A stretch of DNA of 64,000 bases from Marsupella aquatica (lineage: Eukaryota > Plantae > Marchantiophyta): the NCBI GenBank assembly GCA_973895155.1, contig OZ316891.1, forward strand, positions 17,730,095-17,794,094, given 5' to 3'. The translations under genes were made by a program, and so were the position numbers. The notes below the pieces were generated by a model that saw only the letters and a program-made list of their open reading frames with translations, ran no database searches and was not told where the DNA came from. Below, piece by piece: positions 21,921-61,030 of the stretch (the first letter of the stretch is position 1; the number at the start of each line of letters is the position of its first letter).

Positions 21921-22027
21921 GGAACACATTTCCCCAAGATAACCTGCCGGAGGTTTATGAGGATGATGTCGGTGATACTGCCCATGGAGTTAAGCTGGTA
22001 GCGTCACTTTGTTGCCAGTCTAGGGGC
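21921..22027. repeat. 107-bp inverted copy of PTP1 intron-1 sequence (19490-19596)
   Basis: GGAACACATTTCCCCAAGATAACCTGCCGG...GTCTAGGGGC is the reverse complement of 19490-19596, with about 3 mismatches. Confidence 0.9.
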
Positions 22028-22867
22028 GTGGAGTGGCTTGTTAAAATTATGACTTCCCCCTCCATATTCTCCCCTCCCCTCCACTCCCTCTCCTGCCTCC
22101 ATAGCCACTACATTCAAATCTAGTTTTCCCCAAAGAAAATGCAACTTTTCTATAACAAATCAAATGTTTTTGCAGCACAATCCACCTGAACTTCAATTAC
22201 CATATCTTTGGACTGGATAGACAAAAATGAGCGTAGAGTAGCTTGTTGGAACCACAATTCTCCCCTCCATCGTCTTCCCTCCCCACTCTCCTCCTTCTCC
22301 TGCCTCCATAGCCACTACATTCAGATAGGAACTGCCCCTGCAAAAATTAGTTTTTTCAGTAGCATAGTTTTTTCAGCTTTGATTGACATATCTCTGGGTT
22401 GGACAGGCAAAAATGAGGGAGTAGCTTGTTGGAATTCTGGTTTATCCCTCCATAACTTCCTCTCCTCTACCATCCCTTTACTACCTCCTTACTAGACCGT
22501 TTTATTAGACCAGTTTACCCCTAGATTGCTGCCCAAATTGAGCTGCAATTTCTATCAATTTTTACCAGAACTGCAGAGGTTGTTGACTTTGCATTTTTTA
22601 TTAGTATTGGAGATCTTGTGAGTGGCCAACATTGCAAGAGAGGGCAAGCTTGGGGAAGATGGATTCATTTGTCTGCAATCAACTTCTTGAAGGAGTTTTG
22701 TGGCCTGGTCTTGGCTTGAGATTGGACATAAATTTCAAGCTTTCAGCTGGACTTATGAGCAATTGTTTCTAGTTTTGAAATGAATTACTATAATGCATCA
22801 TTGCTCTAGGCTGTGCTCAGTCTGCTTCAATTCACTTTGCACAATGAAAATTTGAGATTTCACTGGT

Positions 22868-23361: not shown

Positions 23362-24741
23362 CTAGAACTTCTTGACTAGATTCTCCTCCTTTATTATCAG
23401 ATATGTAAGCATCCTTTCTGCCCGACTCTGCATTGACAGCAAACTCTGGATCATCTTCACATTCACAATCTGACAAATCATCTTCCGGCTACTCACCTCC
23501 CCTCTCACCTCCGGCCTGTGCATGAGCATCTGCCAACTTCTCAAGGTCCACACTATTCTCTTGGTCTGAGATTTCTTCTTCACTGCCTTTTGTTGGCCCT
23601 ATACCCCTTGCTTGTGACAACATTGCATCACAAGCTGGGCACTTTCTCCTATCATGCCCGAGTTCCTTACAAATGGCTACATTGTCTGGGTCCAAGCTGG
23701 ATCCTCCGGTGAAAATCTTGGTCGTGCCTTTTCCGATGGGCGGCCCCTGTTCCGCTTGACCAGCAACTATCTCCCCACAAGTGTTGTTTGGCACAAGGCC
23801 ATCCTGCAAAATTGCTGGCACACTTCATGAATATGTCTGCTGAAATGTGAGAGTAGAATAAAATTCAGAAACATAGTCATATTGGCGCTTGTGCAACCTG
23901 GTGCAAGCCCTCCATGCATGGACACAAGGCAGGAAAATGTCTTGCCAATCTCAACACCTGCATTTCCATTCAGGTTCAAATTTGACCAAAAACATTATGC
24001 CTAGCTAAAAAGTCAGTAACCCTACACTCAGTAGGACATGAAGCATTAGCAATGAGAAGGGAGTCTTTCTCCTAAGTATCCCTCAATAGAGTCATAATGT
24101 TGGGCGGAAATGGTGTACTAGTGATTGATTCAGCAAGTTGTTGCTTCTAAAAATTTGTCATCATCATGTAGTCCCATAACGTACATATTGGACTGCTTGC
24201 AAGCCACTTCTTGTTGTTGCGGCTTCAAAGCCCTACTCAAGCTTTCAGCTTGCTGACTGGTTTCATGTCCCCATCTGCCAACAAAAATTGTTGGTGAGAA
24301 TAGTCACAAGCAACAGTACAATTGACATATGATGTTCAAACAAACTTATCATATACCTTTTAACTGGACAGACAGTTCAAGAATAGTGTTTGGGGTCTGC
24401 TGTCCTTTCAATGTACTCAGCAAGCCTTGTATTATTGGCTTTTTAATTTGTTTGAGCCTTCTCTTGAATTGCTCTAGAGAGGTAGTGTACACCCAAGGCT
24501 CAAAATCTTTTTCTTCTTGCTTGTTAAAGTGCTTTCTACAGAAAAACCAATGAGCGAGTGATGCAATGATATTTATGCAAGTTACTATCAAAAAGAAACA
24601 TTTACACAATAAGTGACGATGTAAAAAGTAGTGTACCTGCAATCATCTCCAAGATGCTAGGAGCCAAAGGCATGAAATCCCCTTCGGAAAATCTCTGCCA
24701 CACCATCCTACAAACCCTTTTCTCTATCTGAAATGACTACA
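23362..24741 (-). pseudogene. MULE (MuDRA-like) transposase, 3' part: DDE second Asp, SWIM finger, Zn knuckle
   Basis: VVISDREKG..FHAF..HL; RWGHETSQQAES; KCRC*DWQDIFLPCVHA (SWIM); CKELGHDRRKC. Multiple stops and frameshifts. Confidence 0.8.
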
Positions 24742-25567
24742 CACTAGTAGAAACCGGGGGGTATTTAGACCCCATTAAATGACTATTCAGTACCGTATAG
24801 GACTTGGAAACGACTGGGAAGGACTCCAGTCCTTTATAGGACTGCGAGTCGTATGTTTTGTTACTATAATCAACTGAGTCCTTTATAGAACTGGTTTATA
24901 AGTCGTTTAATAGACTGGATTTTCAGTCTATTTTAGTCTTTGTGTGGGTAGCTTTGGTGAGTCGTTTTCAGTCTTTTATGGGCTGCGATGATGAGTCGTT
25001 GGGAACGACTAAAAAGGTTATGGAGGGTAGTCTTTAAATATACTTTGTGGGGTATGTATAAGTCTTTCATGTCAACTGGATATGAGTGATGAAGACCCCA
25101 CTATACTACTTGGAATGAACCCACTCTTGTGCACAAATAACATATTGCATTCATGTTTTATTGTGTACTTGGAATGAACTCACTCTATAAGTTCACCATT
25201 CATCATGTTAACATTAGAATACATAGTTTCAGAAAGCCATCTTCTATACCATGTACACTAATATGAATTCACAGATTCAAACTTCATAGACTACAAAGAA
25301 GGTCACAAAGTATTCCTCTATACCATACACACTAATACTGAAATGATAAAATAGATTCAAGTATCATAGACAATCACCATAGAGCCATAGTTTGACATCA
25401 ATCACTTGTTTCATACATACAGAATTCAGAAATATCAATGTCACACACAACGTCTCCTTCATCCTCTTTACCAAATGGAAAAATTGGTACAGATATTTCT
25501 TGGATCTTTCCAAGGCAATGTCAAAATGTGACACAATTCACATGATTCTATCTACACTTGCATTCAG

Positions 25568-28500
25568 TCACTGCAGACTAACACACTCTGATGGCCAGAG
25601 CACAAGAGATCCTACTGCATCTGCAATTATTTCCTGAGGTGGATCATCGACTCTATTCGGAAATGGCAAATTACAATCAGATACAATCACTGTAGTCAAC
25701 TCGGAAATGGCAAATTACAATCAGATACAATCACTGTAGTCAACAACACTACTACATGGTCATCAGGGACCACTTTGCCATGGAATTTTGCATGATCCGG
25801 TCGCAAAATGCCTGTACCCACACATACCTGCGAGTCATCCTCCCATGATAGAAGATTATGGACTGGCTCTGCTGTGGCTATCACCTCCACCTTACCCTGG
25901 CTATTTTTCTTGGCTTTCCTGGGTGGCTTATACATGACATTATTCATACCTTGGTTGCGAGTCATGACTTTGGCACGAGTGTTTTGTGCTGGTGATCGAG
26001 AATTGGCTACACTCTTCTTCAAAGAATCTGCATCCATATTTGACACTTCTGATTGTGTAGCAGGATTTCCCTGCGACATCATCTCAGTATCTGCCAACAT
26101 TGTACTTGCTTCAATTGAAGCATCTACAATCTTACTTGCATCCAATGTTGCTCCCAAGTTTCGACGTCGCTTCACCCTATTCTCACTTGGTTGAGAGTCT
26201 GTCAACTCTGCATCAACTTCAATTCAGTGTCATGTCCAACATAAGTCAATCACTCATCACATGTGCTAAATGTACATGTCACCAACCACAAAGTTGTCAC
26301 TATCTCCTTACCATTATGAACAGCCTTCTTCCCCTTCTTTGCCATTGCCATATGCTCCATGTCTGCTTCTGTTGATCAATAAACACACCACAATATTCAG
26401 GTTGAATCTATTAACCACTGAATTGTTGCTCAACATTCATATAGAGGAATTTAAAGCATCAGCTTACCTGATACCTCCTTGGCTATGGTCACTGAGGCAC
26501 TGGGCACATCTTCTTCATTATTGCTCTTCAATCATGATGTCACTTTAGATCCCAGTTCATCCAACCAGTTCTTACAGAAAAGATTACCTCCAACCGGCTT
26601 AAGCTTCACAAAACTCCATGCACTTTTCAAATGTAATGTACTGGATCATAGCAGGTTACCTGTCTCAGCAACCTTCTTGCCCTTCTGCTTATTGATTACA
26701 GGGTCCTTCTCTGCCTCCACTCTTCCTGCATTCAAACCATTCACTCAATTCATGAAAACTTACTTCTAACATTTGAACATAGGACACAATGAACAATGGG
26801 CCGGTGTCATTTCCATACCTGTGTCAGATTTGCCAATTCCCTTTTTTGTTAACAAGGGTACACTTTGTACAATGTTGCCCTCATTGTTTGGTTGGGAACC
26901 ACCCAATTTTTCAATCACAAGCTTGAAATTAGATTCCACTGATGCAAGAAGGTTCGCTACAGATGCCTCCACAATATCCAAACGATCAGCCAATTTACTT
27001 TCCACTCGAGGGAGTCCACACTCTAATGACTTCAACCGTTCACACATCTCTGTGAGAGTTGTAACAGTTCCCTGTCATAACACAGCTTACATATCTCAGA
27101 TAACTGTCCCCAAGAACTGGTTGCTTACTTCCTACTACATTTCTTTCTGATGCTCAAGGCCAAATAGTCACAGAACATACAGAATTACAACATAATCACC
27201 TGTTTGGAAGTTACACTTGTCACCTCACTCCTTTGTTTCATGAACTCCTCTCTCACTTCTTGTGCTGATGGTTCTTCACCTGTCAATTTCTTCTGCAGTT
27301 CACATCAACATACATATGAATGAAACCAAGTGTTGATTGTCAATGAAAATGTAATAATGGTAGCAAGATGATAAGTTTGAGGCTTACTATCAGGCATGTC
27401 ACTGCCTTACCAATTGTTCTTTCACTGGAGCATAACTTCCTCTCCCAGCCTGTGAAAGGTGTTTCACTTTGCCTCGAGCATTTGACATCAGTTCACTCTT
27501 GCTCTGTCCAGCCTCCGACATGAACCCTTTGATTAACCGTGTCCATTGATCCAGTTCCAATGATGGGGGTGGTGGCATTCTCCTGTTAGAACCATTGTCT
27601 ATCCACATCCTTTTCAACCTATGCCTCTCTTGTTTCAAAATCCTCATTGCATAATCTGATATGCAATCTTCAACTGGGCCCTTACCATCATTACCAACAT
27701 ACTCCCACCGTTCAAGAATGTCCTTGCAGATAGCAGCCCAATCAGCTTTGTTCTGACTCCTAAACTTTGTAATGCTCAAATCTAACCAACGCAATACTTC
27801 TCCTCTTAGGTCAGAATGCCAACGGTTCTTACCATCACATGTGGGAGTTATCCAACCTTCGGAATTCACTTCTACTTTACCAAATTTGTTACTGTCTCCT
27901 GCCTTGGTACTCCCTGAAGCGCTACTAGGTGTCCCTCCACGGCCTGGTGTCCCCCCACGGCCTGGGGTCCCTCCACGGCCTGATCTCCCCCCACGGCCTG
28001 GATTGCATTGTCCAAACCTCCCTGGAGTCCCTGCACATTTACAGGATCCATTTACAGTCACTTACATTAGGTAAGTATGAATCATAAATCCTGCTGCCAA
28101 ATATACACTGGACTTCAGAGCAATTCTACAATGACCAAGTTACCTCTCCCTTGGCGCATAGATGGTTCTGGACCACCTGTCCTATTGCTTTGTCTTGATG
28201 AATTAGGGCCGTTTCTCCCGCCTGTGAATGATTGCCGCCTATTTGAACGTGGATGGCCTTTGTTGTTTTCGTGATTGTCCCAATCAGAGTCTCCATACCA
28301 ACAGGTACATGCCACACTCATGGACCTGTAAGATAAACTCTTTGCCCTAGCTACACATCAGATAAGTCCATATTGAGCTAAATCTCTACTACCATCACAA
28401 AATCACTAGCACAAGGCACTTACTTGTCCAATCATCCTCCTCACCTTTCCATTGCCCTCTGTACCCGTCTCTACCACGCTCTGGGTGTTCATATTCATCC

Positions 28501-28930
28501 CATCCATCTTCTGCTCCATCATAGTCATCATCATAATTATCAAGCGTCCCTTGCCAATAACTCTGGCTCCTTCTAGGGTATGGATTATGTGATTTCTCTC
28601 TAGCTGCCCACCTACCTGGGACTTGATGAGGGCCCTGTGCAGGATGCACAGGTGCATTTTTCTGTGAGCCCCCTGCATCTGGGTCTCCATCCATATCCAA
28701 TCTTTCCTCTTCACCCCACTCTCCAAGCCCCATGTCTGTCTCCATGTCATCACCCTCTTCCCCCATAGCTTCTGCACAGCACCCACAACCAAACAGGGAG
28801 AATCAGCACACTAAATTCAAAGTATCAATCAATTTCATGCATATCCAACTATCCTAAACATCATTCCAGGCAGCAATTCCCGTTCTGTGACTCTGTGCAG
28901 GTAGTCATCCTCAACCTCATACTTGCCAAT
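25568..28930 (-). pseudogene. CACTA TnpA-like multi-exon gene
   Basis: Exonic pieces: acidic N-terminus, PGRGG repeats, ..QERHRLKR..PPPSLELDQWTRLIK..SELMSNARGKV..AGRGSY (Ptta/En/Spm type), a coiled coil, and C-terminal FHGKVVPDDHVVV..LPFP..DAVGSLVLWP. A 44-bp tandem duplication (25657-25744) frameshifts the last exon. Exon limits are approximate. Confidence 0.75.
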
Positions 28931-28943
28931 CGCCAGCTGTTGC

Positions 28944-31900
28944 CTATTGCAAATCATCAACCTCATCATATTCCATTTGCCCAGGTTCATCATATGTCTC
29001 TCTCAATATTAAGGGGATGTAGTCAGTCCCTACCCGAGTTGGAAGTACAGTCTCATGACTAGGATGCTCGAATGCAGCATGGTCATCCAAACTGAACTCT
29101 ACTTTACTTCCATCCATCCGCCTGTTCCGTGCTTGGCTATGGCATACCACCCTCCAGCCATGTGACTCCTCCACATCTGCAAAGAAACCCTGTTCAACTT
29201 GGCTAGGGAAAACAAAAGGCTCAGACCATTCTGGTACTCTGGACCTAAAATTGGCCAACAAGAACCCATCATGATCACGCTTCATGGTGGCCCTTGGTCT
29301 CTGCCACTCTGATTTCACCCATGATCCCTTCATCAATATCACTGGGACACTTGTGTTACCATAATTCAACACCCAAATGTCGGTCAACTCCCCCACGTAA
29401 CCCATCTTCATCCACCCCCTCTGTTCTTCAGAGGTTCTCTGCTCAAACACAGAAATCAAACCACAATCATATGATACACAATGGTCACCCTGCTCATCCC
29501 TCACTCGATAATGATTTCCATAAGCTCTCATCCGTTTGTAGGTCAGAATAGACAATCGTGGTGGCACAGATAGAAGATACAAATCTTTCTCCATATCTGG
29601 ATGATGTCTACTATGCTCTCAAATTGTCACCCGAATCCACTGCTCGAACTATGGGAAGGGATCCTGCTGCCTAGAGTGTGCAGCTTTTTGCATATCATAT
29701 TCCCTGCAATATGAGGTACAGGCATAGTTAGGTCTAAACAACACATGACAACCTAAGATCACCCTTGGAACAGACAAGAAGCATCACAACAAAGGCAAGT
29801 CAATTCAATCACTCACCTCCACCATGGTTGCATAGGCTCTGTGTTTGCCAGCACATATGAATGAGCCTTGTCTCGAATCGCAACAAGCAGCTGAATAGCA
29901 CATCCCACACCTTCAACAACCTCGCCACTCACTCCATCATCTTCACCAGATTTCCAAACTCTTGTCATAGCTTCACCAGACCCAGCCATGTACTCTGTTA
30001 GGAATCCCAACGTCTCATCCTTAATGTACCCCAATGCCATGGAAGCCTCTGGCCTGTAGTATGTTCTCACATGACCTTTCAACAACTTCATGTATCGCTC
30101 CATAGGGTACATCCATCTGGTACTGACTGGCCCATACTGCCCTAGCTCTTCTACCACATGGATTAGGAGATGAGTCATAACATCAAAGAAAGCAGGGGGT
30201 AGTATATCTCCAAGTCACAGAGGACATAAGCAGCATCCTGCTTCAACTGCTCCAATCCTTGGGGATCCCACACTTTCACACATATACGGCGAAATACATT
30301 GCATAGTCAAAGAATGACATTACGGACTGGTTTCTGCATGAGACCTCTGAGGCATAGGGGCAGAATGTGCTGCATCAACACATGGTAGTCATGTGTTTTC
30401 ATACTGCCAAGTTTATTCTTTGTAATATGCTTCTTGAAGGCACTTTCAGACAGCTCAATCTATACAAGAATGTCTTCCATTCATCCTGTGTGCACACATA
30501 GGGAGCTTGGAACTTGAGAAGTACATTGGGATTGCTTGCATGGGGCTTCAACCAAAGGTGAGGGCCAATCCCCTTCTGTTGCATATCAGCTCGAACTGCT
30601 CCTGTATCTTTCTCACCCGACAAGAACTTCAGCAAGCTCTCACAAATATTTTTCTCAATGTGCATGACGTCCACATTGTGTTTGCTGGCCTCGAATTCCT
30701 GCACTCCACAAAGCAAAGAATTCAACAACAGAAACACTAATTAACCACATAGGAGGATTGTAACCAACATCAATCCACCATTGCTCGTATCTAAAATTGC
30801 AATCATACAGGGGCTGGAGGCTAAGTACATTACCCTCCAGTACTCCAACTCCAAGTCCATCAAGGTCTGTCTTTTCACACCGTGTTTCACCACTGGATCC
30901 TCGGGTTCTCGATCAGTGGCACTTCTCTTGTCCCAATCAGCCTTCCTGGCTGCCCACCTCAGGACTTGCTCTCTGGTGACCCTCTGTGGTGGGCCACGAA
31001 GCTCTGTTTTGTTGTTGAAGTGTGCAATTTGAGACCGTGTGTGCCTGTAAGGATGATCAACAGGCAGATACCTTCTATGCCCCTGAAATTTCATACTGTG
31101 CAGGGCATGCGACCACTCACTTGTCACATTTTTCCCACATGGTGTGCACCCCACATAGCCCTTTGTCACTCGTCCAGATATGATGCCATGGCCTGGGTAA
31201 TCTGCTATATCCAGCAAACAAATTGCATGCAGTCTAAAGGGGCTGGGTCGAAGAAGCCCCTTCAGAACATCATGGGTTAACACCCCTTCTATCCACAAAG
31301 TCTTCCACTCTTCCACTGCTGGAGCCAACATGATATCTATGAATTGCTCGGTCACAGAAGCTGGTCCAGGGATTAACAACACCATCATGACAAAAAACCT
31401 CTTTGTAGTCATCCATGGGGGAAGGTTGTAATTTAGCAGCGTAACCGGCCAACATGAATAACGGTTGTTTTTGTCTCCAAATGGGTTTACTCCATCCAGT
31501 GATAGACCAAATCGAAAGTTCCGCTTCTCTACAACAAACTGTGGCCACCTCTCATCAACAAATTTCCAATGGTTGGAATCTCCAATGTGACGTTGCAGGC
31601 CATCACTGCTCTTGTTATCAGGAGTCCATGTCATCAGCTTGGAAATGGCAGGGCATCTAAACAGACGTTGTAGTCTAGGAATGAGAGGAAAATGACGAAG
31701 AACCTTGGCAGGATGTGTACATTTCCCTACATTCTTGTACCTGTGCTTACCACAATGAGGGCATGTCAATTTATCTGCATGCTCTTTGCGAAAGAGAACA
31801 CACCCATCAGGGCATGCGTCAATAGACACATAGTTCAGCCCAAGGTTAGACATCAATTTCCTAGCCTCGTACATATTTTTTGGAATTGAATTACCATCTG

Positions 31901-32929
31901 GTAACACATTTCGGCGCAGGAAGGTCAACAACTCTGTCACAAATATATTGGGAACATTGTGATTGCCACAGATGTTCAACAACAACACGACAAAACCCAG
32001 CTTGGAGCAGTTCGACCCCTCGTAGATAGGAATGCAAGCTTCTTTGATGTGTTTTGGGCCCCCAAACACCCACTCCCTCTCTGCTGCACCTTCCCCAATG
32101 TCAAAGTCAGGTTCAGCTTGGCCATCGCCAATGTGTGGCTGCGGTTCATTGTCCTCTTCTGATTCCACTGTGTCGTAAAAAGCATCAAGGTCTTCAAAAA
32201 TCTCTTGAACCATTCTTGGGACATCCATCCCACCGTCCTCAGTGACTGCCTTTGCCTCTCCATCTTGGTCATCCACGTTCTCATGTTGGACCCCAGGACC
32301 ATCCTCTGCACAGTCTATGTCCTGCTCTCTCGGGGGTTTCACTTCCACAAAAATGGCACATCACGTGCGACGAAGTATAGGGTTGATTTATTGGTTTGAA
32401 GGGAAGACTTAAGAATTTTTGTAGAAGAACAATAGGGTCCTTTAAATTCAATTTTGAGACTTATAAGAACATTAGGGTCTTTTTAACCAAAATTTTGGAA
32501 TATTCCAAGAATATTCCAACTTTATAGGGGTTGAAAAATTAAAAAAAATTCTTATATTTTAGGGGGTCTGAGGCCTAAAAACGTCGCAGGGGATGGGGAG
32601 ACATCCATATAGTGAGACCCCTGAGCCTGCTCTACGTAGTCTCTACGCCTAGCTGTATTAGAATCCACAAAGTCAGCTCTCCACTCTTCATCAGAGGAGT
32701 CTTCTTCTGCTGGTACATTCCAAACCCTCCACCGAGGGTGTCTTTCATGCCGCAGCAGGTGAAGGTGCACAGTGTTCAAACTCAACGACTTGAATCCTTG
32801 GCACTGTGTGCATGGGCATCTCATCCTCCTACTCCTACCTTGGGCGGCCCGGGCTTGTTCACGCATCCACAATTTAGAATCATGATGCCTAATCCTAAAT
32901 GGGTTGTGAAGAGGCAACCTTGGAGCCAT
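28944..32929 (-). pseudogene. CACTA TnpD transposase (Transposase_21/DUF4218/DUF4216 type), disrupted
   Basis: RCPCTQC..VHLHL; IDACPDGCVLF; LRHFPLIPRLQRLF; LSLDGVNPF..YSCWPV..NYNLPPW; DYPG; DVMHIEKN; KTHDYHV; MTHLLIH..GPV..RWMYPMERYMK; EPFVFPSQVEQ. Broken by a MITE (32362-32592), a frameshifting deletion near 30435, a TGA near 30307 and a frameshift near 30200. Confidence 0.92.
32362..32592. mobile_element. 231-bp MITE inserted in the TnpD coding sequence, AT target duplication
   Basis: at|CACGTGCGACG ... CGTCGCAGGGG|at. Removing the element plus one AT restores the TnpD frame (..MDVSPCAIFVEVKPP..). Confidence 0.85.
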
Positions 32930-33282
32930 CACTATACACACGCACTCAGCACCCTATCATTTTATTATGCAAGTGAAAAATACACTTCCTGTTAAGGATT
33001 TCACCCCCGACTGTACTTGCCAAAATACGTAACATTCCAAAAAAACAAAAAAACAAAAAATATAGGTGCCTGAGTCATGTACCTATTCTCAAGTGAATGA
33101 GACAAAATTCCTAAATGTTTGAGGGTGTCAACTCCTCCGCTGTCCTCACATGTATTGCCTCTGCACGTACATCCATGACCATATCAGAGTCCAATCATGT
33201 ATAGTCATAGACACAGGTGCCAGGTGCGAGACCGGTGTGAGATGTCCTCATCTTACTACCACATCAAATACGGATACCAATC

Positions 33283-33789
33283 CTATTGTCGATGCCACTC
33301 AGCCCTGAGGTACTCAGGCATGTACATTAAGTCATCAAGGTCTAAACCCTGCTCATGCCATGGTGGTCTTCGATCCGTGCCTACAAGCAGTGGTAGCAGT
33401 GCCCTCCATGGTGCACATGTTGCTACTAAGTCCCTCCACTGGGTACTAATTAGTCTATATTTGCAGATATCTTGTGCGCCAGACACCACAAGAACCCTCG
33501 GCCAGACATGTGTAAGAACTATATCATCTGCCAAATCAGGCAACAAGGAACCACCTACAGCATCGTGCTTGTCTAACTCATCTGCTGAAAAGTAAATGTC
33601 CTCTTCCGACTGTGCATCCTCATTCACCACAGCATTCACAACACATCCAAGGTCTGCAGGCATTATCTCGGATGGAGCTACACTCTGTCTGGTTACCAAC
33701 CCACACAAGTAAGCCCAAGCAGTAGCCATGCACGATGCAACCCGTAGGAGGACCCTACATAGGGCCTGACGGTCTGGAAGAGGCAGCAT
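33283..33789 (-). CDS. F-box-motif protein carried by the CACTA (possibly C-terminally truncated)
   Basis: LLPDLADDIVLTHVWPRV..CKYRLISTQWRDLV fits the F-box consensus LP.E/D....I...L.........VSK.W..L. The stops after 33283 are TAG/TAA/TGA, explainable as C-to-T of Gln/Arg codons. Confidence 0.6.
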   Translation of the reverse strand: MLPLPDRQALCRVLLRVASCMATAWAYLCGLVTRQSVAPSEIMPADLGCVVNAVVNEDAQSEEDIYFSADELDKHDAVGGSLLPDLADDIVLTHVWPRVLVVSGAQDICKYRLISTQWRDLVATCAPWRALLPLLVGTDRRPPWHEQGLDLDDLMYMPEYLRAEWHRQ

Positions 33790-33965
33790 ACCCACCAAAG
33801 TCTTCAACCAAACAGAGCCCAGCAAGTAGATTCACAGTCACACCCCACACAGCAGGAAACAACAATCACTTCAACTGCGACCAACCATGACAAGATGAGT
33901 TAGTTCAAGGATCACATTTATTACAAAATTGTGATTTATACAAAAATATGAGGGACTCCTACTCC

Positions 33966-34814
33966 TCACTCTCTCCCACCTTTGCTAAGCATACATCTCC
34001 GCTGAATCTTGGAGGGCCAGGCCTCAAAAATATCAAAGTCCCAAGCATGCTGTCGCTTCCCTCTAACTGCTGATTCCAGAAGCCAATCAGGGGAAAGCAC
34101 CCAAAGATTGTTGTTCATGACAAAATCACGCACTATTGTCTTAAAGAATTTTCTGCATATTTTCATGTATGACAGACCTACAACATGAGTGGAGGTTTCT
34201 GTTAGACTCTCCTCCACTGTCCCACCTAGCTCAACAACTATGGACTTGTATAGTCTGCACTTAGTCTCCCCAATTCCTTCTTCTGCAAATACCACACTGA
34301 ACCCCTTCATAATGGTATTTCTCTCCTTGCCATGCTCATTCAATATAGCATCTGCACGCATAGGATGGTGTCCTATGTTGACAACAGGTCCATATTGGAC
34401 AGAAGCAAAGTTGGGTTTCTCTGCCGCTGCTTCATAGGCTTCCTTTTCAGCCAAAGCCTCTGCAGTGGCCTCCTCACTCTCCCACAACTCATATTGCTCA
34501 GTACTCTGTACACACCTATGTTTAACAGAATCGGTCAGCCAAGAGACTTCAACTACTTTTAGACCTTGGTTGGTAATGGCAGAATCAATGAAGGACCATG
34601 ACCACTTGTTCATCACATCCAGCCATGTCCCCGCAACAACATGTGTAGTCTGTGGAGTGATGTCCTTGACTTCAGTCCCATGGAACTCTGAGAATCGTTT
34701 TTGTACGATTGGCCAACTCACTTGGGTGAACCCATAGTGGCCAGGAATCAAAATGGCTTTGATTCCAGCCAACAGAGGCGGGTGGTCAACCTTTGTACGT
34801 TTCCTAGAGGCCAT
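33966..34814 (-). CDS. Tandem BRCT-domain protein (DNA polymerase lambda-type BRCT), intact 282-aa ORF in the CACTA
   Basis: Two repeats: LLAGIKAIL..HGT..TTHVV..VVEVSWLTDSV and MKGFSVVF..GIG..ELGG..STHVV..VLSPDWLLESA..FDIF, with the BRCT GG, THVV and W..(D/E)S hallmarks; basic NLS-like N-terminus (RKRTK). Confidence 0.85.
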   Translation of the reverse strand: MASRKRTKVDHPPLLAGIKAILIPGHYGFTQVSWPIVQKRFSEFHGTEVKDITPQTTHVVAGTWLDVMNKWSWSFIDSAITNQGLKVVEVSWLTDSVKHRCVQSTEQYELWESEEATAEALAEKEAYEAAAEKPNFASVQYGPVVNIGHHPMRADAILNEHGKERNTIMKGFSVVFAEEGIGETKCRLYKSIVVELGGTVEESLTETSTHVVGLSYMKICRKFFKTIVRDFVMNNNLWVLSPDWLLESAVRGKRQHAWDFDIFEAWPSKIQRRCMLSKGGRE

Positions 34815-35412
34815 GTACACACGGGCCACCTAATCACTACAGACCAGAAGATAATGCGTTCACCTGATAATCGGAGGGCCCTTAAAATGCTGCGTTTATA
34901 ACTTGGTCCAGTCCAGTCGTCTGGTGAGTCTCTGCTCCGATTCCAAACGGGAGAAATATTGGGACAAACATACTAGACACCTGCAAGCATGCACCTCATA
35001 GTTTGAATATGTGCCTTCACAATATTGAAGGTGACAAGTGCAATTGTTTTGTGATGCCACATACAGATGTTGTAAATGGGCAGACATTCAATGAGAATAC
35101 AAAATGTTGGTACACTTTAAGGGAATTCTCACAAATTAAATAGCCTTGTAACTTATATGCTCATAATGAGAAGTCCTGATTTAATTTAAGCAGTGTCATG
35201 TAAGTCGTGATCAAAATGATTGCAGAGTTAAAAAAGTTCCTAGAAGGCTTAAGGGGAGTTTTTGAAGGCATGTACCCAGGAACAAGTAATGAACTTAGGG
35301 TACTTGTTGCCTAAGCATCCTCTCCTACAGAGGTCCTTCTTCTCAAAATTGGAATGTCTGCAATCTCCAAGGTATCCACATCAGGTGCACTATGCATGTA
35401 CATTATTCAGGT

Positions 35413-36093
35413 TCAAAGCCAAGAAATGTGATCTCTCATGGGAGTGTGCAAAGTAGGATCTATGGCATGGCGATGACAATAGAAGATCCATCGATCAACA
35501 CCATGTGCAGAGTGATCATAGATGTGTCTGTCACAAGCATAGCCTTCTGCTTGACGCTCCTTCAAACAATGAAAGTGCCACATGGTGGGACACCTAACAC
35601 AGTGGACTATGTCCACCCAGAAATCTTCATCGTGCTGACCACATGCCTTGCACTTATGAAGTGGGCAAGTTGTGGCAAGATCGGGCAAACATGAAAAACA
35701 AAAGAACCTCACACAATATCTGTCAGGGCATTTCCTAACAAGTGGTGGAGCATCAACAGAGCCCTCATAAGACCCCAACTTCCCACACTGTGCACACTTA
35801 GCCTACTTCTCCAAACAATTAGTGCACATCCAGCCTCCCTGGTGTGCTGACGGGAGGCCCACCCCTGGACAGTTGTTTTCTACAGCAAGGTCAGACTCTG
35901 GGTTGAGGTGGAAATGCCTCATGCAAGGGCCCTCACATATGGCTAAGCCACCACCATCGTCACAAATGGCACAACAATGAGCTGCCTTCTGGAAAATCTG
36001 ACTTGCGGAGAAGTTACTACCATCTGGCCCAACTACACCTGTGTTGCTCACCTCTGTCCCCCGCTTCTTGGCTCGGATTTTAGGGCGTGCCAT
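35413..36093 (-). pseudogene. EDM2-like (NSD-type) PHD-finger cluster; one ORF of about 226 codons with a single in-frame TAG at 35803-35805
   Basis: CAICDDGGGLAICEGPCMRHFH..WMCTNCLEK*AKCAQCGKLGS..CPLHKCKAC..CVRCPTMWHFHCL..IFYCHRHAIDPTLHTPMRDHI aligns by eye with recalled Arabidopsis EDM2 (CAICDNGG..CEGSCLRSFH..CPLHKC..CRRCPKSYHRKCL..IYCQEHEID..TPVRDHV). The two listed ORFs are in the same frame. Confidence 0.85.
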
Positions 36094-36758
36094 GCCTACG
36101 CATGAGACAGATAGTACAATTTAGCAGAGTGCACAGACAATACAATTTAGTGCAGTGTACAAAAAGTACAGTGTAGCATATAGACTAGAGTGGCAATTGC
36201 TACTGCAATGAAATGTTCACACACATGTGCAGAGTAGACATACTTTTTGGTTTGTTGAGCCCACACTAAAAACTGATCCCCTCAATAGCTCCACCTACAC
36301 CTAAATTTTGTGGCTATGATTCACCAAAGGAGATCTGCAACAAGATTTAATGCATTCGAATCACATATAACAGTCGTGACATGTAAAACAGGCATTTTTT
36401 GAACAGGATTGGTATCAAGCACTGTGATCAGGGTTGTAATTTATACATCCTAAATAGGCTATGATAGTGAATGAGACAAATAAGTTAGGCAAAAATCACT
36501 TTTTCCAGGTTATCACATGGCCCATTAATTCCAGTCTTTGAAAGGAGACTTTTAAGTGAGCTTGCTAGCCTCTTAAATTAGGATATTGTACTTAGTGCAG
36601 CCATAATAGGATAAGTTATGTACTGTTGACCCTAAACCCTGGACCCAGAATTGGTCATAATTCAAAATCTTAAGTAAATATCCTCTCTGTTCAAGTCAAA
36701 GTGTTAAGTTATAGGTCAATGGTCTCTGGTTTGTGCATGCGGTGTGACAAGTGGTCCT

Positions 36759-37208
36759 CTAGAGCGTGTGATCCAAACATGTGTAGACACCAAAGTGACC
36801 GGTGGTGGGGTCTGGGAGGGCAGGACAAGTGACATCGCCAGGCACACTGCAGGATGGCGAGTGGTTCCAGATGATACATTGTGCTCTGTGAAAAAACCGA
36901 CATCCAAGAGAACGGTCATCCAACTCTAGGCCAGAAGCCCTACAGGCAGGACAGTCATATTGGCAACTGTGCACACACCCTTGGGCCCTAATTTGTGGCG
37001 GGTCATGTACGAGAGACAGAAATACCAAGGATGTTGGGAAGGGTGGAGAAGCAGGTACAGGCCGGCTGTAGTTGTTCCTGGCAACAACTGGGTACTCAAA
37101 GTACCATGCAGACTGGGCTGGAAGGATCCCAAGTCTGACATACTCAAGGCGCAACATCTCTGCCTTGCGTGCAAGCCGCACATGTTCAGCGTTGCGGGTC
37201 CTCACCAT
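36759..37208 (-). CDS. Cys/His-rich hypothetical protein (149 aa) in the CACTA
   Basis: ATG-initiated ORF co-oriented with the other cargo; basic N-terminus (MVRTRN..RLARK) and CVHSCQYDCPAC..CRFFHRAQC cluster. No family recognised. Confidence 0.45.
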   Translation of the reverse strand: MVRTRNAEHVRLARKAEMLRLEYVRLGILPAQSAWYFEYPVVARNNYSRPVPASPPFPTSLVFLSLVHDPPQIRAQGCVHSCQYDCPACRASGLELDDRSLGCRFFHRAQCIIWNHSPSCSVPGDVTCPALPDPTTGHFGVYTCLDHTL

Positions 37209-40200
37209 AAGTGTTGCTTTTGTGGAGATGTCGTGTGTTCACGTCCTCTGATAAGCACCTTCGATCAGCAAGGTGAGCAGGAGCTGTACTTGCCTCACCA
37301 ACAGCAACCAACCTTAAATTATCAGTTCCCACTCACTGTGTCATTCCATTGGTTCCAGCTAGGGGTCACAGTGTAAACATAGCATGAAACACTCCTAATC
37401 AACTTGCTTACAAACTACAATATCCAGAAAGAGTGAAAGTCTCACCCTCCAGTGAGCAGCAGAGAGGTAGTTCACTAGATGTGTTGATGTGCAGTTAAAC
37501 CTCCACTATTGCTTACTTCTGGTGTATGCTGCTCAGAAGAAGACATATTAGTAGCAGCAAATTGCAAATAATGGCCATAAGCAAACCGTGAGAGTTTGCA
37601 GAATGCTACAACAAATCCATCACAGCAGTGCTCCACAGGAATGAAACCAAGCAAAATTTGGTGACCTCGGCCAATGACAAGGCCAATGTAGTGAACAATC
37701 CTTGACCGATCAGGATATGGATTGGAATTACAATTAGTCAGCTCTTCTTCTTTGTTTTCTAACTCTGGGGCAAATGAGCATGACCAGGGAATTCTTTGAG
37801 AAATAGAAGTGCACAGGGAAAATGAAATTGGCTCATTGAGTTGCGCAAGACCGACCACTGCAGCATAAACAAACTCATGAAGAGGCAGAAAGGATAGCGT
37901 TGCCACAAGCGCAAAATCCCAACAGGTTTAAGTTGCAAAAAACTAACCCCTCCAAATGTGATTGCAACGGTGTTGAGGTCGTCTGTTCACCACCCCACTC
38001 CACCGTGGGAGCATTGGGCACAAGGCATGTTCGGATCCAGGGAGGAGAAAAATAGTCATGTGAAGCAACAAGTGTGGAGAGACCAATAAGTAAACAAAAA
38101 TAGGGAAGAACAATGCGGTGATCATGAGCAGCAGGAAACAAGAAAGTTGATTTGGGAGGGATTGTAGGGACAGAGCTTTTGGTGGGCTTGGCTGCGCGTT
38201 CATATCGGAAGATAGATGCGAGAGAGTGTGAAGAGGGTGGCAACCAACAAAGGCAGTGGCAAGCAAGCAAGCAATACACGATGATAACGGCAATCGGCAA
38301 TGGCGGTGGGAGGCAGCAATAGGCTAAATGAATATTCAGTACCAATCCGCAGCTCGTCCGATGAGAATGAGTGACATGAGGAAAATGCCAACACACTGAC
38401 CCACTACCAAGAAGAAAGAAAACCAATCTCAACCACCCTCTATCATCAATGACAGGACATATATTCAAAAATCCAAGCTGCAATTGATGGAAACAACAAC
38501 ATAAACAGAATTCTGAACATAAACTGCTCATGAAGCTTTCGGGATCATATATTCCAAGAGCAAATGTGAACATGCCAATATATGAAAGCTCTGGCATACA
38601 GTTCATTGCATTCCATAGAGACGTCTGCACCAAAGAGCTTGGAAGCAATTGCCTATCTGCTGGAAGCAGGAAACATATATGTAAATCCCAAGCCCATACT
38701 ACATTGGAGATGATCAGCTCACTCAGACAGACATTGCATTTTGATTAACCAAATGTAGCAGGCTAGCAGTGGGACGAAGGATAGGGCCAACACTAATGCA
38801 CAGCAGTGAACAACTATGATTAACCAAATGTCAGTAGCAGGCCAGTAGAGGGACGGAGGATAGGGCCAACACTAATGCGCAGCTGTGAAAGACTGACAAA
38901 TAGAAAGCAAACAAGAGCTTCAAATATAGAACATCAAACCTTCTGCAGCGGTCGATGGGCTTTGATTCACAGGTCGCCTGGCTCGGTCCCTTGTCGCAGC
39001 TCGCCCAGCTCCACAACACCGTAGACAAGGAGTTGGTTGGTCCAATTTCCACCATGCAGCGTTAGCAAAATGGCAATGCTTGATCTTCGCCCTCCGCCCT
39101 TTGCCCGAACCCCAAAATATCACAAGCACAGCTCCAACGTCCAACTGGCAACCCTCCCCCGAGCTTGCTTAGACGAAAATCAGCATAGCATAGCTGAGTT
39201 CAACGGAAATCATCTCAGCACCCACCCCAGCTGAACAAAGCTCACACAAGAGCTCATACGGGAGCTCACTATGGGAGTAAAAGAAAAATAGGAGGGCCGT
39301 GTGGCGCAACTACATGGACCTGTCAAACTCAGCGCCTCCTGAGAAGAACATTCCTGTCCGACCGCGACTGTAAAACCCTTCAAAACACTATGAACAAACA
39401 CTCACCTCTGACTTGTAACTTTGTCAATGTGGCCGACAAATCCCAGAGCGCTGCCGAGCTTGGTTGTTGCTCGAGTTGTAACAGTGCTCAGCTCAGCGAC
39501 GGTGACCCTAAACCAAATCCTTCGTCTCTAAGTCCGCACGTCTCTTAGTCCGCAGCGCCGACCACAAGAAAGGTGGAACACTAAACCTCACTATACAGTA
39601 GTGGCCGTGAATGCCCGTGAATGCCTGCAAAGACAACACAATAAAGTGCAAAGGGTTAGAAATGTGGCGGGATTAGGGTGTGACAGAGTGTGGAGGTGCA
39701 AAGTGTATGCAGAGTTGACCCTCCAACGGATGCTCCAACTCGCTCCCCTCCAACGGTCGCGCAAGTAGAAGCCCCGGCCCCTTGGGATTCCCTTACCGTA
39801 GTTCGCTCCAAAGCCAATGCCTTCTGTAGCAGGAGCGATCACCTCTACTGAAGCAGCTTCAATCGAACACACAACAACGGGGCGGGCAGCGACAACACTA
39901 ACAGTGAACGATAGACTACTCAAACGACCTCAAAATGGAACAAAAGCACGAGAAAACATTGAGGCAGAAGGCAAGTCCCTAGCACCAGGCAACCAAAGGA
40001 TCGGGACCAAAGGAAGGGATGACATGCCATTCCAACAACGGGAAGGGGGAACGGGACGCGGGAACGGGCAATATTTTGATGGTGGGGATGGATGCCGACA
40101 ATCCAATGGTCCCTAAACCCCCATCCCCTTAACATGCAACCCCCGACCCTTGACATCAAACCCCCCCTAAACCCCCTTTAGTGAAAACCCAGCCACCCCC

Positions 40201-40879
40201 TAGCCTTGACATATAAACCCCCTAAACGTCTTGACAACTCGACTGTGGCCATACTATCTTTGCAATGCCAGGGGCCATTTTTAGAGTGCCGCTTGCAAGC
40301 TCAGGCTCTCAAGATCCTCCCAAGGCAGCAAACAAGTTAGGGTCCCTAAACATGTTCCTTTACCCTAAACCATTGCATCACTATTTCAATCGAGTGTTCT
40401 TCGGCTGGACAACCCCCTAACCCTAAACCCACACCCCCTTGAGACCGGTACAAATCTACCTTTGTGCATCTCGGCCTTTTATAGATGGAGTTAGTAATCG
40501 ATCCCTCCGTAGTCCACTCTCCATGAACCTCACTCCAAAACCTTTTTGGTCACAAATAAGGCCATTTATTGAGTTATGCCCCTTGCTATCACCCTCTTTA
40601 TAGAATTACCCCTCCTCAACATAAGTGAACATTACCCATGATGTGCTAGACTATTCACCGTTCACAAAGTAGCAAGGTTACTTCTCATAGTCTTTTAGTG
40701 AACCATCAAACACTAATAGTCTTTTGTAGTCTTCAACAAAACCGGTGCAATGGGTGCGAGTCGTTTCAAGTATGGAAAAAGGACTTAGTGGGCTTAGTCC
40801 TATAAGGTATGGTCTAAATTGCCCCGGTTTCTACTAGTGACAGTTCTTCCTAGGGCCAACTCATGTATAGCATTTTTAT

Positions 40880-41290
40880 TGTTGAGCATAGACGACAATC
40901 GCAACGGCAAACCCATGAACCATCCAACACACAAGAGTTGACACAGAGAGATACGTGGTTCACCTCCTCATGAGGCTATGTCCACGGGAACACACATGAG
41001 CTTTACTGCACTCTAGGCCGACCGACCATACCAAGCATCCACAACGCAAGCTCTCTCTATCTCTCAACTAGCTCTATAATAATGAGCCTGAGTTCCCACT
41101 CTCCAAGCAAACACCGCTTGGTTATAGAGTGTGCACAACATGACTAACTTAACCAAGTCTGCGACTAAGGTTAGCCTTAATTACGATATAGTCGTAACTC
41201 TAGACCTAAGAGTAAATCGTAACACTAATTAATTGTAAAAATCTCAACTATTGTGTGGGGTTTCCAATGGGAACCATACAATACTCAAGA
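40880..41290 (-). mobile_element. Solo LTR (Copia-like), no matching TSD
   Basis: Ends ..CTCAACA on the minus strand at 40880; contains the U5-type CCCGTGGACATAG..GTGAACCACGT motif; homologous to 60688-61030. The other end is 41249 or 41290. Confidence 0.7.
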
Positions 41291-41510: not shown

Positions 41511-44437
41511 CCCTACAAAGAGAAAGCAACATCAAATTCAGCATCTGGAATTAAAGCTCACCTGAAAGTGCACATGGTCATAGAGTTAAGCAACGATAGC
41601 AAACTAAGGGCAACTATTCAATACGAATGCATAGACGTAACACACAGAAAAGACAATCTTTGAATCACAATCACACAAACAAATGAGAGATAATGCAACA
41701 ATTCAATCACAATCCCACAGAGAAAGAGCAGAGTTTATCAAGCTCACATAGTTGAAGAAATTGATCAAATTCCTACCAGATCATAGACATTTGAATAGTT
41801 GCAATTTGATTGTTGTCTTCAGTTGTGCTTGAACACTTGTCTATGGAGATAGGAGCCAGCTGCTTATGGAGCCATGTTGTCCAATCACAAAATCTCCAAG
41901 ACAAATAAGAAACACACAGTCAACAACCTCTGAAATTTTGGTAAAAACCGACAGAAATTGCAGCTCAAATTGGGTAGCAATCTAGGGGTAAAATGGTCTA
42001 ATGTGGAGGTAGTAAAGGAATGGGAGAGGAGAGGAGGTTATGGAGGGGGAACCCACATCCCAACAAGCTACCCCATGCTCATTTTTGCCTGCCCAAACCA
42101 AAGATTGATATCTCAAATCAACGTTGAACAAACCGTGCCGCTGGAAAACTAATTTTTGCAAGGGAAGTTCCAATCTGAATGTAGTGGCTATGGAGGCAGG
42201 AGAGGAGGGGAGACTATGGACAGGAGAATTGTGGTTCCAACTAGCTACTCCACTCTTGCTTTTGTCTATCCAATCCAAAGACATGCTAATCAAAGTTCAG
42301 GTGAATTGTGCTGCAAAATTGATTGTTTAACAGAAAAGTTGCATTTTCTTTGGGGAAAATCCAATTTGAATGTAGTGGCCATGGAGGCATGAGAGGGAGG
42401 GGAAGGGAGGGAAGAATATGGAGGGGGAAGTCACAATTATAACAAGCTACTCCACGCTCATTTTCACCTACCCAATGGAAAGATACATGACATATATCAA
42501 AGTGGAAGGTCTGCTGTCACTATCAACTCCTATTTCCTTAGGCAAAACTGTAAGTCCTTTATTCACTTTGCATTTTCTTTGGGAAAAACGTGAATGCAAT
42601 GTTTGTGTTTCTCTCCTATGCTACAAGCATTGATTAGGAGCCGACGGGATTGAGAGGAACCAACAAAAAACATCAGGGAGAGGTTTTTGACAGCGGGAGA
42701 GGGCTGGCAGGGGGGAGCTCACACTAGGCGACCAACCCCTTCAGTTGGGGCAGAACAAGTTGGGCAGAGATTTTTTGAGGGAAAATTCCCACCATTGGAT
42801 GCATACATGTGGCATGATTTCAGCCGTTGGATGAGTATGAGTTAAACATAGGTGGTTAACTTAACCCCTGCTGCAAAAAGGTGGCATTCTAGTAAATAAG
42901 CATGACAAGGTAATAATTTTGCAATAAAAAGGTGGCAAAGCAGTAAGTCTCAATTTTCAAGTGGCCACTCTCTAGCATTTGGGGAAAGGGAAGCAACCGG
43001 CTGCCCAGCCTAGTAATGACCCAAAGGCTTTGATTTTGGACACCTCCTGACTGGGAGAATTAACTTACTTTGTTCTTCCCAAAAATTTCCTAGCGTGTGA
43101 AGACAAAAGACAATGCACTGCCCATGACATAGTGCATGCCCTATACTTTAAAAAATGCCCTCCTAGGGATTCCATCAAGGCACTTTGATTTTTGTCCATA
43201 ATTTCTTAACTTAGTGTCATCAAGAGAATGCATGGCAATGACACAATGCTCAATATTGTGACAAAATGCTCCTGGCTTGCTACACTAGGGAGGGAAAGTA
43301 CTCTCAGGCCATGGGTTGCTGGTGCTATTTGTTTAGACGTTTACAAGGGGAGGTTTTGGGCTCTGGTGGGGACTTGCTTGCTTTGATTGCCTTCTTTGTC
43401 GGGAGGATTCTACTGACTTGGTTTGTTTTATACGTCGCAAGATGCTATGGGTATTGTGGAATGGTAGGAATAAGAGGGTATTTACTCAAGCGGCTGCCAT
43501 TCGCCCATTCATTTATTTTTGCCTAGTGCTCTTAAATGACTGATCCTTTGCAAGTGGTTAGCTTAATTGCATACCCCTAAGCAGGAAACTTATGTGTCCA
43601 CTAAGTGCAAAAGAAGTGCTTATTAGGGAAAGAAAACTATTATGGGCGCACAGTGGCACTCATTTTCTTTAGGAGGAAATTTTCATTGGTTTGTGAGTGT
43701 TAGAACCAGTTTTATTGTTGGCTAATTGGCATTCAGAAACACTAAAATACTATGAGCTATGGGCCATGTCTTAGGTAGGATGTGGTGTTTGCTGTCTTTT
43801 ATGGCTTACAGCCTGGTTCTGCCCTCCTTCAAGGAATTGTCCTTTTATGTTCCTTGTTCTTTTGGGCTGTATTACTTCCCCTTTCTGTAGGGTTATCACG
43901 GTTTAAATAGGGGGTCTCAAATATTGGGCCAGGCAATTCCTACAGATGACCGTTTTAGGTGGCGGACGCGGCTAAAACTTGTACGACACTCCCTCTGTGT
44001 GGCCTGCACACTCATATTGTGGCAATTTACCATTTCCCGAGAAAAGTTTGGCCCGAACGGTCAGCACAATTTAAATTGGTGGTCTAACACTCTTATCATC
44101 CTGTCATACACAAATTTCCACTCTCACAAGAGGGAAATGCTATCGCAATCAAGTTGGGAGCTTATCGTCGACGATCGCGAATTGATCAGAGGTGCATAAC
44201 GGAGTGTGTGTCAATGGAGAGTGTTTCAATCAGACGTCAAAGTGTTTAGAGTTTAGCATTGACAGCCAACATTGGGAGCTTATCATCAACGGGACGCCAA
44301 TGCCAGCAAGCTTGAATCAACAATCTTGTGTAAGTTCTTTTGACTCTTGACATGCATGCTCTGTTGTCCACTCTTGAAGTACCATGCATGAAAATATTTG
44401 GGGCCTGAGTCTAAATTTTTCTTTGCCATAAAAAGAG

Positions 44438-60687: not shown

Positions 60688-61030
60688 TGTTAGGCATTTT
60701 TACTTAGATCTAGAATAATGACCACAGTCATAGTTGGACTAATCGTAGTCATAGACTTGATTAGGTTAGGCTGCTGCATCCTATGTACACAAGCAATGTT
60801 AGCTTGTGGAGTAGGAACTTGGATTCATTTTTATGGAGCCATTGGAGCATTAGAGAGAGCTTGTGTTATGGACACTTGGGATGGCCACGGGCCAAGAGTG
60901 CAGTAAAACTCTTGTATGTTCCCATGGATGTAATCCCATCGGAGGTGAAAAATGCATTTCTTATTATCGATTACATGTTCATTGGAGTATCACATGTGCA
61001 TGCCCTTGGGAGTATCATCTTCACTCAACA
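60688..61030 (+). mobile_element. Solo LTR (343 bp) with 5-bp TSD TTTTA
   Basis: TTTTA|TGTTAGG...CTCAACA|TTTTA; shares AGAGAGAGCTTG, AGAGTGCAGTAAA and TTCCC(A/G)TGGA blocks with the LTR at 40880. Confidence 0.85.

Follow-up and report, generated by a model that had tools for sequence, protein, structure and literature searches.

A CACTA transposon with four accessory genes, including a short protein of EDM2 origin

Accessory cassettes are already known in the CACTA/EnSpm superfamily of transposons, whose members can also capture host DNA, most of which decays (PMC13317346). On the host side, EDM2 binds chromatin carrying H3K9me2 and acts with ASI1 and AIPP1 so that transcription through heterochromatin yields full-length transcripts (PMC7472560, PMC7529245). 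Here we describe a CACTA element in a 64,000-nucleotide stretch of Marsupella aquatica contig OZ316891.1 (positions 17,730,095 to 17,794,094; hereafter the window), which carries four accessory open reading frames (ORFs), one of them encoding a shortened EDM2-like PHD protein, mini-EDM2. What appears to be new is this EDM2-derived member and the gene set in which it occurs. No published CACTA with this gene set and no transposon-encoded EDM2 were found, with most subscription papers, Repbase and supplements outside the coverage. The main text of a study of 962 predicted Spm protein structures reports other accessory domains, without PHD, BRCT or F-box (10.64898/2026.08.24.746577), and the main text of an atlas of transposable element products in Arabidopsis contains no PHD, BRCT, F-box or EDM2 (PMC13547354). 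We lean towards a reading in which selection on the element keeps four non-catalytic adaptor genes, mini-EDM2 mimicking or competing with host EDM2.

Four accessory genes inside the element

The element and its accessory genes are as follows.

24742-40839: CACTA element, 16.1 kb, with 18/18 terminal inverted repeats (TIRs) and an ACA duplication
36759..37208, minus strand: ORF1, 149 amino acids (aa), from a conserved Cys/His-rich family without a name, probably zinc-binding (8 relatives, 30-56% identity)
35413..36093, minus strand: ORF2, mini-EDM2, 226 codons, PHD region and C-terminal motif, stop at 35803-35805
33966..34814, minus strand: ORF3, 282 aa, two BRCT domains (Pfam BRCT) with a linker of ~55 aa
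33283..33789, minus strand: ORF4, 168 aa, F-box-like core (weak Pfam match and relatives), no C-terminal substrate domain

Among the 21 CACTA/G candidates listed in an end-pair scan, 24742-40839 was the sole pair of ends with a target-site duplication (TSD), so that the perfect TIRs and TSD which a preliminary description had placed around the cargo were recovered as an 18/18 inverted repeat with ACA on both sides. All four ORFs lie on the minus strand, 5' of the transposase gene TnpD and in its orientation. They are compact and occupy the interval between the right end and TnpD (36759-37208, 35803-36093 as far as the stop of ORF2, 33966-34814 and 33283-33789), again as described. The term 'head-to-tail' used for them stands for a row with spacers of 665, 598, 176 and 353 bp from ORF1 to TnpD, and the boundary of ORF1 is 3.6 kb from the right end of the element. 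Colinear alignments with homologues are consistent with intronless genes. The three basic N-termini also hold, with 5, 6 and 4 Lys or Arg among the first 15 residues (2 in the F-box-like ORF). Upstream of the start codons of the PHD, BRCT and TnpD genes (36093, 34814 and 32929, minus strand), at a distance of 2-15 nt, there is an AG with a T-rich tract before it. Judging from these tracts, a common leader may be spliced to each ORF, or the tracts may be due to chance.

When read through its stop as X, ORF2 gave NSD-type PHD matches, and a profile search matched NSD2 at E 1.3e-10, the match stopping at profile position 170 of 217. ORF2 was aligned to L002, a full-length EDM2-type protein from a metagenome scan (its frame of 1,305 aa includes RFD and PHD domains; presumed to be from a grass), which was the only full-length EDM2 compared with the cargo. 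The alignment covers exactly the EDM2 PHD region at ~30% identity, with the C-terminal motif in common, in line with the EDM2-like assignment made earlier. ORF2 has the repeated atypical PHD fingers with zinc ligands of EDM2-type proteins, followed by the C-terminal motif, and the triple-PHD alignment holds 28 invariant columns across nine proteins. The other domains of full EDM2 are absent from its 226 aa, which consist of the PHD part, with no RFD or methyltransferase-like domain; the zinc-finger scaffold is retained and the RFD and later domains have been dropped. On sequence grounds, the PHD gene is thus of EDM2 origin. The claim that each cargo gene had been trimmed to an interaction module is borne out for this gene only; for the other three, no host donor was found.

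A protein search covering lengths of 124-396 aa returned 111 candidates, five of which are relatives of ORF2 (217-245 aa; 80, 74, 53, 40 and 38% identity). An RDHISW-type C-terminal motif occurs in all of these relatives, in the same alignment column in four of the five, and the Cys columns of ORF2 are 93% conserved compared with 53% for other columns. In a midpoint-rooted PHD tree with long branches, the six cargo-type proteins form a single clade apart from grass EDM2 and EDM2-like proteins (support 100/100), and these six share derived features. A metagenome scan with the PHD alignment confirmed 11 of 221 candidate stretches, all at 25-46% identity; the 11 are EDM2, EDM2-like or unrelated PHD genes, with no cargo-type locus among them. 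L001 and L003-L007 are stand-alone EDM2-like PHD proteins with the common C-terminal motif, probably from grasses.

The preliminary description had named near identity to host exons as a sign of recent passive capture. With the single full-length EDM2 compared, that of a grass, the PHD gene has no more than ~30% identity and is, by this comparison, not a recent passive capture. For the cassette as a whole, a passive capture of recent host-gene fragments, now in neutral decay and without a role for the element, is very improbable: each of the four is a whole ORF that has a start and a stop of its own, and whole relatives match them at 30-80% identity, the derived features are found in all six cargo-type proteins, and the stop in the PHD gene is private to this copy. 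Such a capture would fit the habit of CACTAs of picking up host DNA that mostly decays (PMC13317346), the broken state of this copy and the non-significant DNA-level selection test given below. Assignment to the Pack-CACTA class was rejected, as the family encodes TnpD, its cargo consists of whole ORFs and identity to the grass EDM2 compared is ~30%.

The Cys-rich cargo ORF noted earlier proved to be one of a conserved Cys/His-rich family. HMMER against the full library returned ten matches to ORF1, of which eight were retained (144-200 aa, 30-56% identity), P0016 and P0019 being discarded for their long low-complexity repeats. Because these eight relatives carry an invariant C-x-H...C-x2-C-R core, we take ORF1 to represent a real, unnamed protein family, most members of which start with an M-x-R-T-R-like motif. 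ORF1 had no atlas match, no Pfam match better than E 0.04 across nine members, no PDB sequence match under E 0.4 and no similarity to the PHD profile. In its predicted structure (pLDDT 69) there is a helix at the N-terminus, then come three strands, and a second helix lies further on; Foldseek with this model found nothing at E <=0.001 in PDB or viral libraries.

The tandem BRCT assignment of ORF3 was borne out by Pfam BRCT matches above the cut-off in two stretches (E 1.7e-13, 51 bits against a cut-off of 21.3); the two halves are 24% identical to each other, and the atlas neighbours of ORF3 are BRCT clusters. One of 737 candidates is a relative, a single cluster of two members with 61% identity across 95% of the length. 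No donor was found for ORF3, the best PDB profile match being to DNA ligase 4 BRCTs (E 0.0057) and the match to the TdT BRCT reaching E 0.39; ORF3 may resemble the BRCT of plant DNA polymerase lambda. In a BRCA1-type pocket, Ser/Thr-Gly and Thr/Ser-x-Lys of the first repeat bind the phosphopeptide, and the linker is short. A non-significant BRCA1 alignment (E 0.16) places Ser of ORF3 at the pocket Lys, and Tyr precedes the Gly.

As to the F-box claim made for ORF4, there is a weak Pfam F-box match (E 0.097, 13.1 bits), which falls below the cut-off of 20.5, and no recognisable substrate-binding domain, the ~40 aa after the motif matching no family. Three of 84 candidates are relatives of ORF4, at 50-55% identity, with conservation over the F-box-like core and the ~40 residues after it; two of them, P0008 and P0009, reach 19.3 and 17.7 bits (E 0.0011 and 0.0034). 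Matches to FBXW11 and FBXL5 were weak (E 0.6-0.7), and the AF2 model of ORF4 has a pLDDT of 39.5. ORF4 stops 5-8 residues before its relatives. This stop is replaced by Gln in a diverged contig of sequencing run X9 and not in a near-identical piece from run X6.

Other copies and the probable maintenance of the cassette

Parts of the cassette are present in 11 listed sequencing runs under seven organism codes, four of the runs carrying more than half of its words (the richest may be the source sample), and the possibility raised at the outset that the cargo occurs only in this copy is thereby refuted. Contigs of four runs were aligned to 24500-41100, with read depth not equal to copy number and uncovered bins in X9-X11 not counted as absence. 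In run X1 the main-contig depth is ~1,700-2,100 at TnpA-like, TnpD, F-box-like, BRCT and spacer positions, while a flank contig has a depth of 19, so that cassette and transposase contigs are ~90-100-fold deeper. As this depth is even across transposase and cassette, it fits perhaps a hundred near-identical copies, cassette included. At position 35805, within the TAG (35803-35805) that interrupts the PHD gene of this copy, an alternative letter restoring Gln makes up 100% of the depth in X1 and X5, 99% in X2 and 74% in X6; other copies are thus without the stop, and the runs of several organisms contain multi-copy families, nearly identical, in which the PHD frame is open.

Diverged PHD-like and F-box-like contigs in X6 have depths of hundreds to thousands, like the TnpD-like contigs, while near-identical pieces have depths of 3-20. 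Seven of the eight X6 bins with depth >100 are ORF bins, compared with 17 of 30 bins overall (p 0.047), so the diverged high-depth relatives match mainly coding parts. The earlier suggestion that neutral evolution might explain the cargo is opposed at the protein level by compact, intact relatives at 30-80% identity, and at the DNA level the signal is not significant: 11 of 32 changes within the ORFs are synonymous, with ~22% expected (p 0.085; from 40 of 172 rows, 32 of them in ORFs). If the protein relatives are element-borne, their pattern of whole ORFs, matching ends and kept ligands would be hard to obtain by drift. It is likely that the four ORFs are genes maintained by the element and not drifting fragments, which agrees with the view of them as dedicated genes, as they are whole ORFs with compact relatives and are not confined to this copy.

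An improbable alternative is that the ORFs come from lineage-specific families of single-exon host genes, one cluster of which was amplified with the element, the relatives being host genes. The protein relatives P0001-P0020 come without genomic context, stand-alone EDM2-like PHD genes do occur in grass contigs (L001, L003-L007), and there is no bridging contig among those listed, all of which would suit such mini-genes. However, the two stand-alone grass proteins in the tree cluster with EDM2 and not with the cargo clade, and the TnpD-like depth of the diverged PHD-like and F-box-like contigs in X6 fits repeats better than single-copy genes. A viral source was also sought, and scans of viral contigs confirmed 0 of 95 candidates for BRCT, 0 of 70 for the F-box-like protein and 0 of 42 for PHD.

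Possible roles of the cassette

Under the reading we favour, mini-EDM2 would either mimic host EDM2 in silenced chromatin or compete with it there, and the element would thereby stay expressed and mobile. We consider it slightly more likely than not that chromatin, or else the EDM2 (ASI1-AIPP1-EDM2) pathway, is where mini-EDM2 acts. Speculatively, and with considerably less confidence, the BRCT pair might be a docking site for repair proteins at breaks left by excision, the F-box-like protein might bind SKP1 as an adaptor or decoy, and the Cys-rich protein might bind zinc and perhaps nucleic acid; the roles of the BRCT and F-box-like proteins follow from domain names alone.

Several results weigh against the preferred reading. 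The acidic patch before PHD1 of AIRE binds the H3 tail. At this place mini-EDM2 has Ala-Ala-His-Cys where AIRE carries Asn-Glu-Asp-Glu, and an acidic residue two to three positions ahead of the first Cys is missing from all six cargo-type proteins but present in L002 and L001. With the acidic stretch ahead of PHD1 lost, canonical histone reading by mini-EDM2 appears doubtful. The F-box score is under the cut-off in all four proteins (ORF4 and its relatives). Deep conservation is least well supported for ORF3, which has a single related cluster, and ten of the 13 changes listed in one diverged BRCT stretch are non-synonymous. Selection at the DNA level is not significant (p 0.085). The protein relatives have neither genomic context nor accessions and could be host single-exon genes. 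No listed contig joins two cargo genes, or cargo with TnpD, and linkage and gene order of the cargo in other copies are therefore inferred from depth. Finally, Arabidopsis EDM2 represses the DNA transposon Mu1 and de-represses the retrotransposon COPIA4 (PMC3632883); since EDM2 acts on transposons in both ways, an effect of mini-EDM2 could go in either direction.

The reader-like part of mini-EDM2 could also serve insertion. According to this explanation, mini-EDM2 joins TnpD and TnpA and guides insertion into gene-poor heterochromatin, with no relief of silencing. There is precedent for a captured reader used for integration (PMC6673714), chromodomains and the Copia MBD presumably steering insertion in this manner, and a scan of ORFs in the flanks of the element gave no meaningful Pfam match and no recognised host gene. 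We nevertheless think target-site steering unlikely, as the PHD protein is a separate ORF and not fused to the transposase and its histone-binding acidic patch is altered; a single insertion site is uninformative on bias.

The preliminary description went further and proposed a mechanism that couples heterochromatin reading, break repair and SCF-mediated degradation. No result supports this coupling. The F-box is sub-threshold and has no recognisable substrate-binding domain, the BRCT pocket residues are altered in the weak BRCA1 alignment, and the acidic stretch before PHD1 is lost. A related and speculative idea, to which we give little credence, is that the four proteins jointly form a virus-like counter-defence cassette of an old plant CACTA lineage. 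Mini-EDM2 would then hijack or jam the host complex for reading through heterochromatin, the BRCT pair would capture break repair at excision, the F-box mimic would target a silencing factor for proteasomal degradation, with a new zinc-binding family acting alongside the other three. If true, a plant DNA transposon would possess an anti-silencing system based on a histone reader, in contrast to VANC and TnpA, which work through DNA motifs.

Element structure, surroundings and comparison with described systems

The remaining features of the element are listed below.

24739..24741: left TSD, ACA (ends scan)
24742..24759, plus strand: left TIR, 18 bp, beginning CACTA, 18/18 against the right end
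24810..25066: left subterminal repeats, a 6-bp motif ten times in both orientations (motif count)
25571..28802, minus strand: probable TnpA-like gene, several exons, damaged, limits approximate (weak Transposase_24)
28944..32929, minus strand: TnpD transposase, broken here (Pfam Transposase_21, DUF4218, DUF4216, Transpos_assoc)
32321..32625: 305-bp insertion in the TnpD gene, skipped by the main X1 and X5 contigs
38350..40011: 5' internal region, in a minority of copies only (X1 depth ~8-fold lower), no recognisable gene
40689..40764: right subterminal repeats, the same 6-bp motif four times (motif count)
40822..40839, minus strand: right TIR, 18/18 against the left end
40840..40842: right TSD, ACA (ends scan)

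The CACTA TIR, the 3-bp TSD, a TnpD-type transposase and subterminal repeats together place the element in CACTA/EnSpm. Its 6-bp motif occurs 24 times, ten of them in the first 325 bp and four in the last 150 bp; as the motif was chosen from the element ends themselves, no p-value is attached. TnpD matches Transposase_21 (E 4e-59), DUF4218 (7.5e-17), DUF4216 (4.7e-5) and Transpos_assoc (2.4e-5). In the probable TnpA-like gene, Transposase_24 was matched at 27399-27647 on the minus strand (E 0.002, 18.7 bits against a cut-off of 28.7), the remaining pieces have no Pfam match, and there is a 44-bp tandem duplication at 25652-25739. TnpA-like proteins are reported to be seemingly confined to flowering plants (10.64898/2026.08.24.746577).

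TnpD carries two frameshifts here, other copies having one extra letter at 30194 and 19 at 30438. With these, the 305-bp insertion in TnpD and the stop in the PHD gene, this copy is dead; the family itself is probably not old debris. The junction of the insertion is at 32320-32626, where 8 letters match either side, and the insertion sequence is of high depth. It could represent a small non-autonomous element flanked by a duplication of 8 bp. The 5' internal region varies between subfamilies, as seen from the ~8-fold drop in X1 depth and a contig that skips 39593-40543. A CACTA-like palindrome lies within this region at ~39589-39603. Neither a 243-aa ORF at 37875-38606 nor the other ORFs in 37209-40839 matched any family, and none of these is treated as cargo.

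Elsewhere in the window, a broken Gypsy-like LTR element (51173-57047, plus strand) has a DNMT3-like cytosine methyltransferase ORF (53052-53936; PF00145 E 6e-6, DNMT3A E 6e-5), which is flanked by its protease ORF on one side and its RT-RNaseH-integrase ORF on the other. It is probably of a known kind, since Gypsy-DNMT3 elements have been reported for streptophytes (10.64898/2026.05.21.726589). This neighbour, the transposase families of the CACTA element and the EDM2 match all point to a plant host. An inverted repeat of ~600 bp (22026-22635 / 41871-42485, main arms 83-95% alike) surrounds the CACTA element; it may belong to an outer element with long TIRs, or a short repeat may be present twice. 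Two further inverted repeats, 19490-19596 / 21921-22027 (97% over 107 bp) and 40970-41135 / 60775-60939 (74-80% over 50-110 bp), are probably the ends of other elements. A 504-codon open frame at 2-1513 on the minus strand, which runs off the start of the window, has no meaningful Pfam match.

With canonical CACTA/EnSpm elements the locus shares the CACTA TIR, the 3-bp TSD, subterminal repeats and the TnpD domain set, with a weak, sub-threshold Transposase_24 match downstream, and it differs in its four extra genes 5' of TnpD. The nearest cassettes are PAG1-3 of the red-algal Plavaka elements, which belong to the same superfamily, are similar in size (17-19 kb) and also carry several accessory genes, with domains related to chromatin and, in one gene, no known function; enzymatic activities are predicted for the PAGs (adenine methylase/SET, ParB/2OG oxygenase; 10.1101/2025.02.11.637652), whereas the cargo here looks non-catalytic and belongs to other families. 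Multi-gene accessory cassettes are thereby extended from red-algal EnSpm to a probable plant lineage, and an unnamed conserved Cys/His-rich family is added. VANDAL VANC, KIU-ULP1 and Spm TnpA are transposon-encoded accessory proteins that act on host silencing, one of them with a captured host domain (PMC13317346, 10.64898/2026.08.24.746577). They bind specific DNA motifs and their activity has been shown, while the present cargo has no shown homology to them and is known from sequence alone. If mini-EDM2 is kept for anti-silencing, its route would be distinct from the DNA-motif recognition of VANC and TnpA.

CopiaMBD and Gypsy-DNMT3 are also mobile elements that retain a host epigenome module (PMC6673714, 10.64898/2026.05.21.726589). 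Both are retrotransposons with a DNA-methylation-based domain in or beside pol; here, a DNA transposon carries a free-standing gene of the histone-reader type with three companions. Compared with EDM2 (AAE) and NSD-type PHD1-3, mini-EDM2 has the same scaffold of three atypical PHD fingers and the EDM2 C-terminal motif. It differs from EDM2 in its length (226 against 1,305 aa), in having no RFD or later domains, no acidic stretch before PHD1 and no PHD2 insert of ~21 aa, in a His-to-Cys ligand change and in its location inside a transposon, and it would offer a natural means of learning which targets are bound by the PHD region of EDM2.

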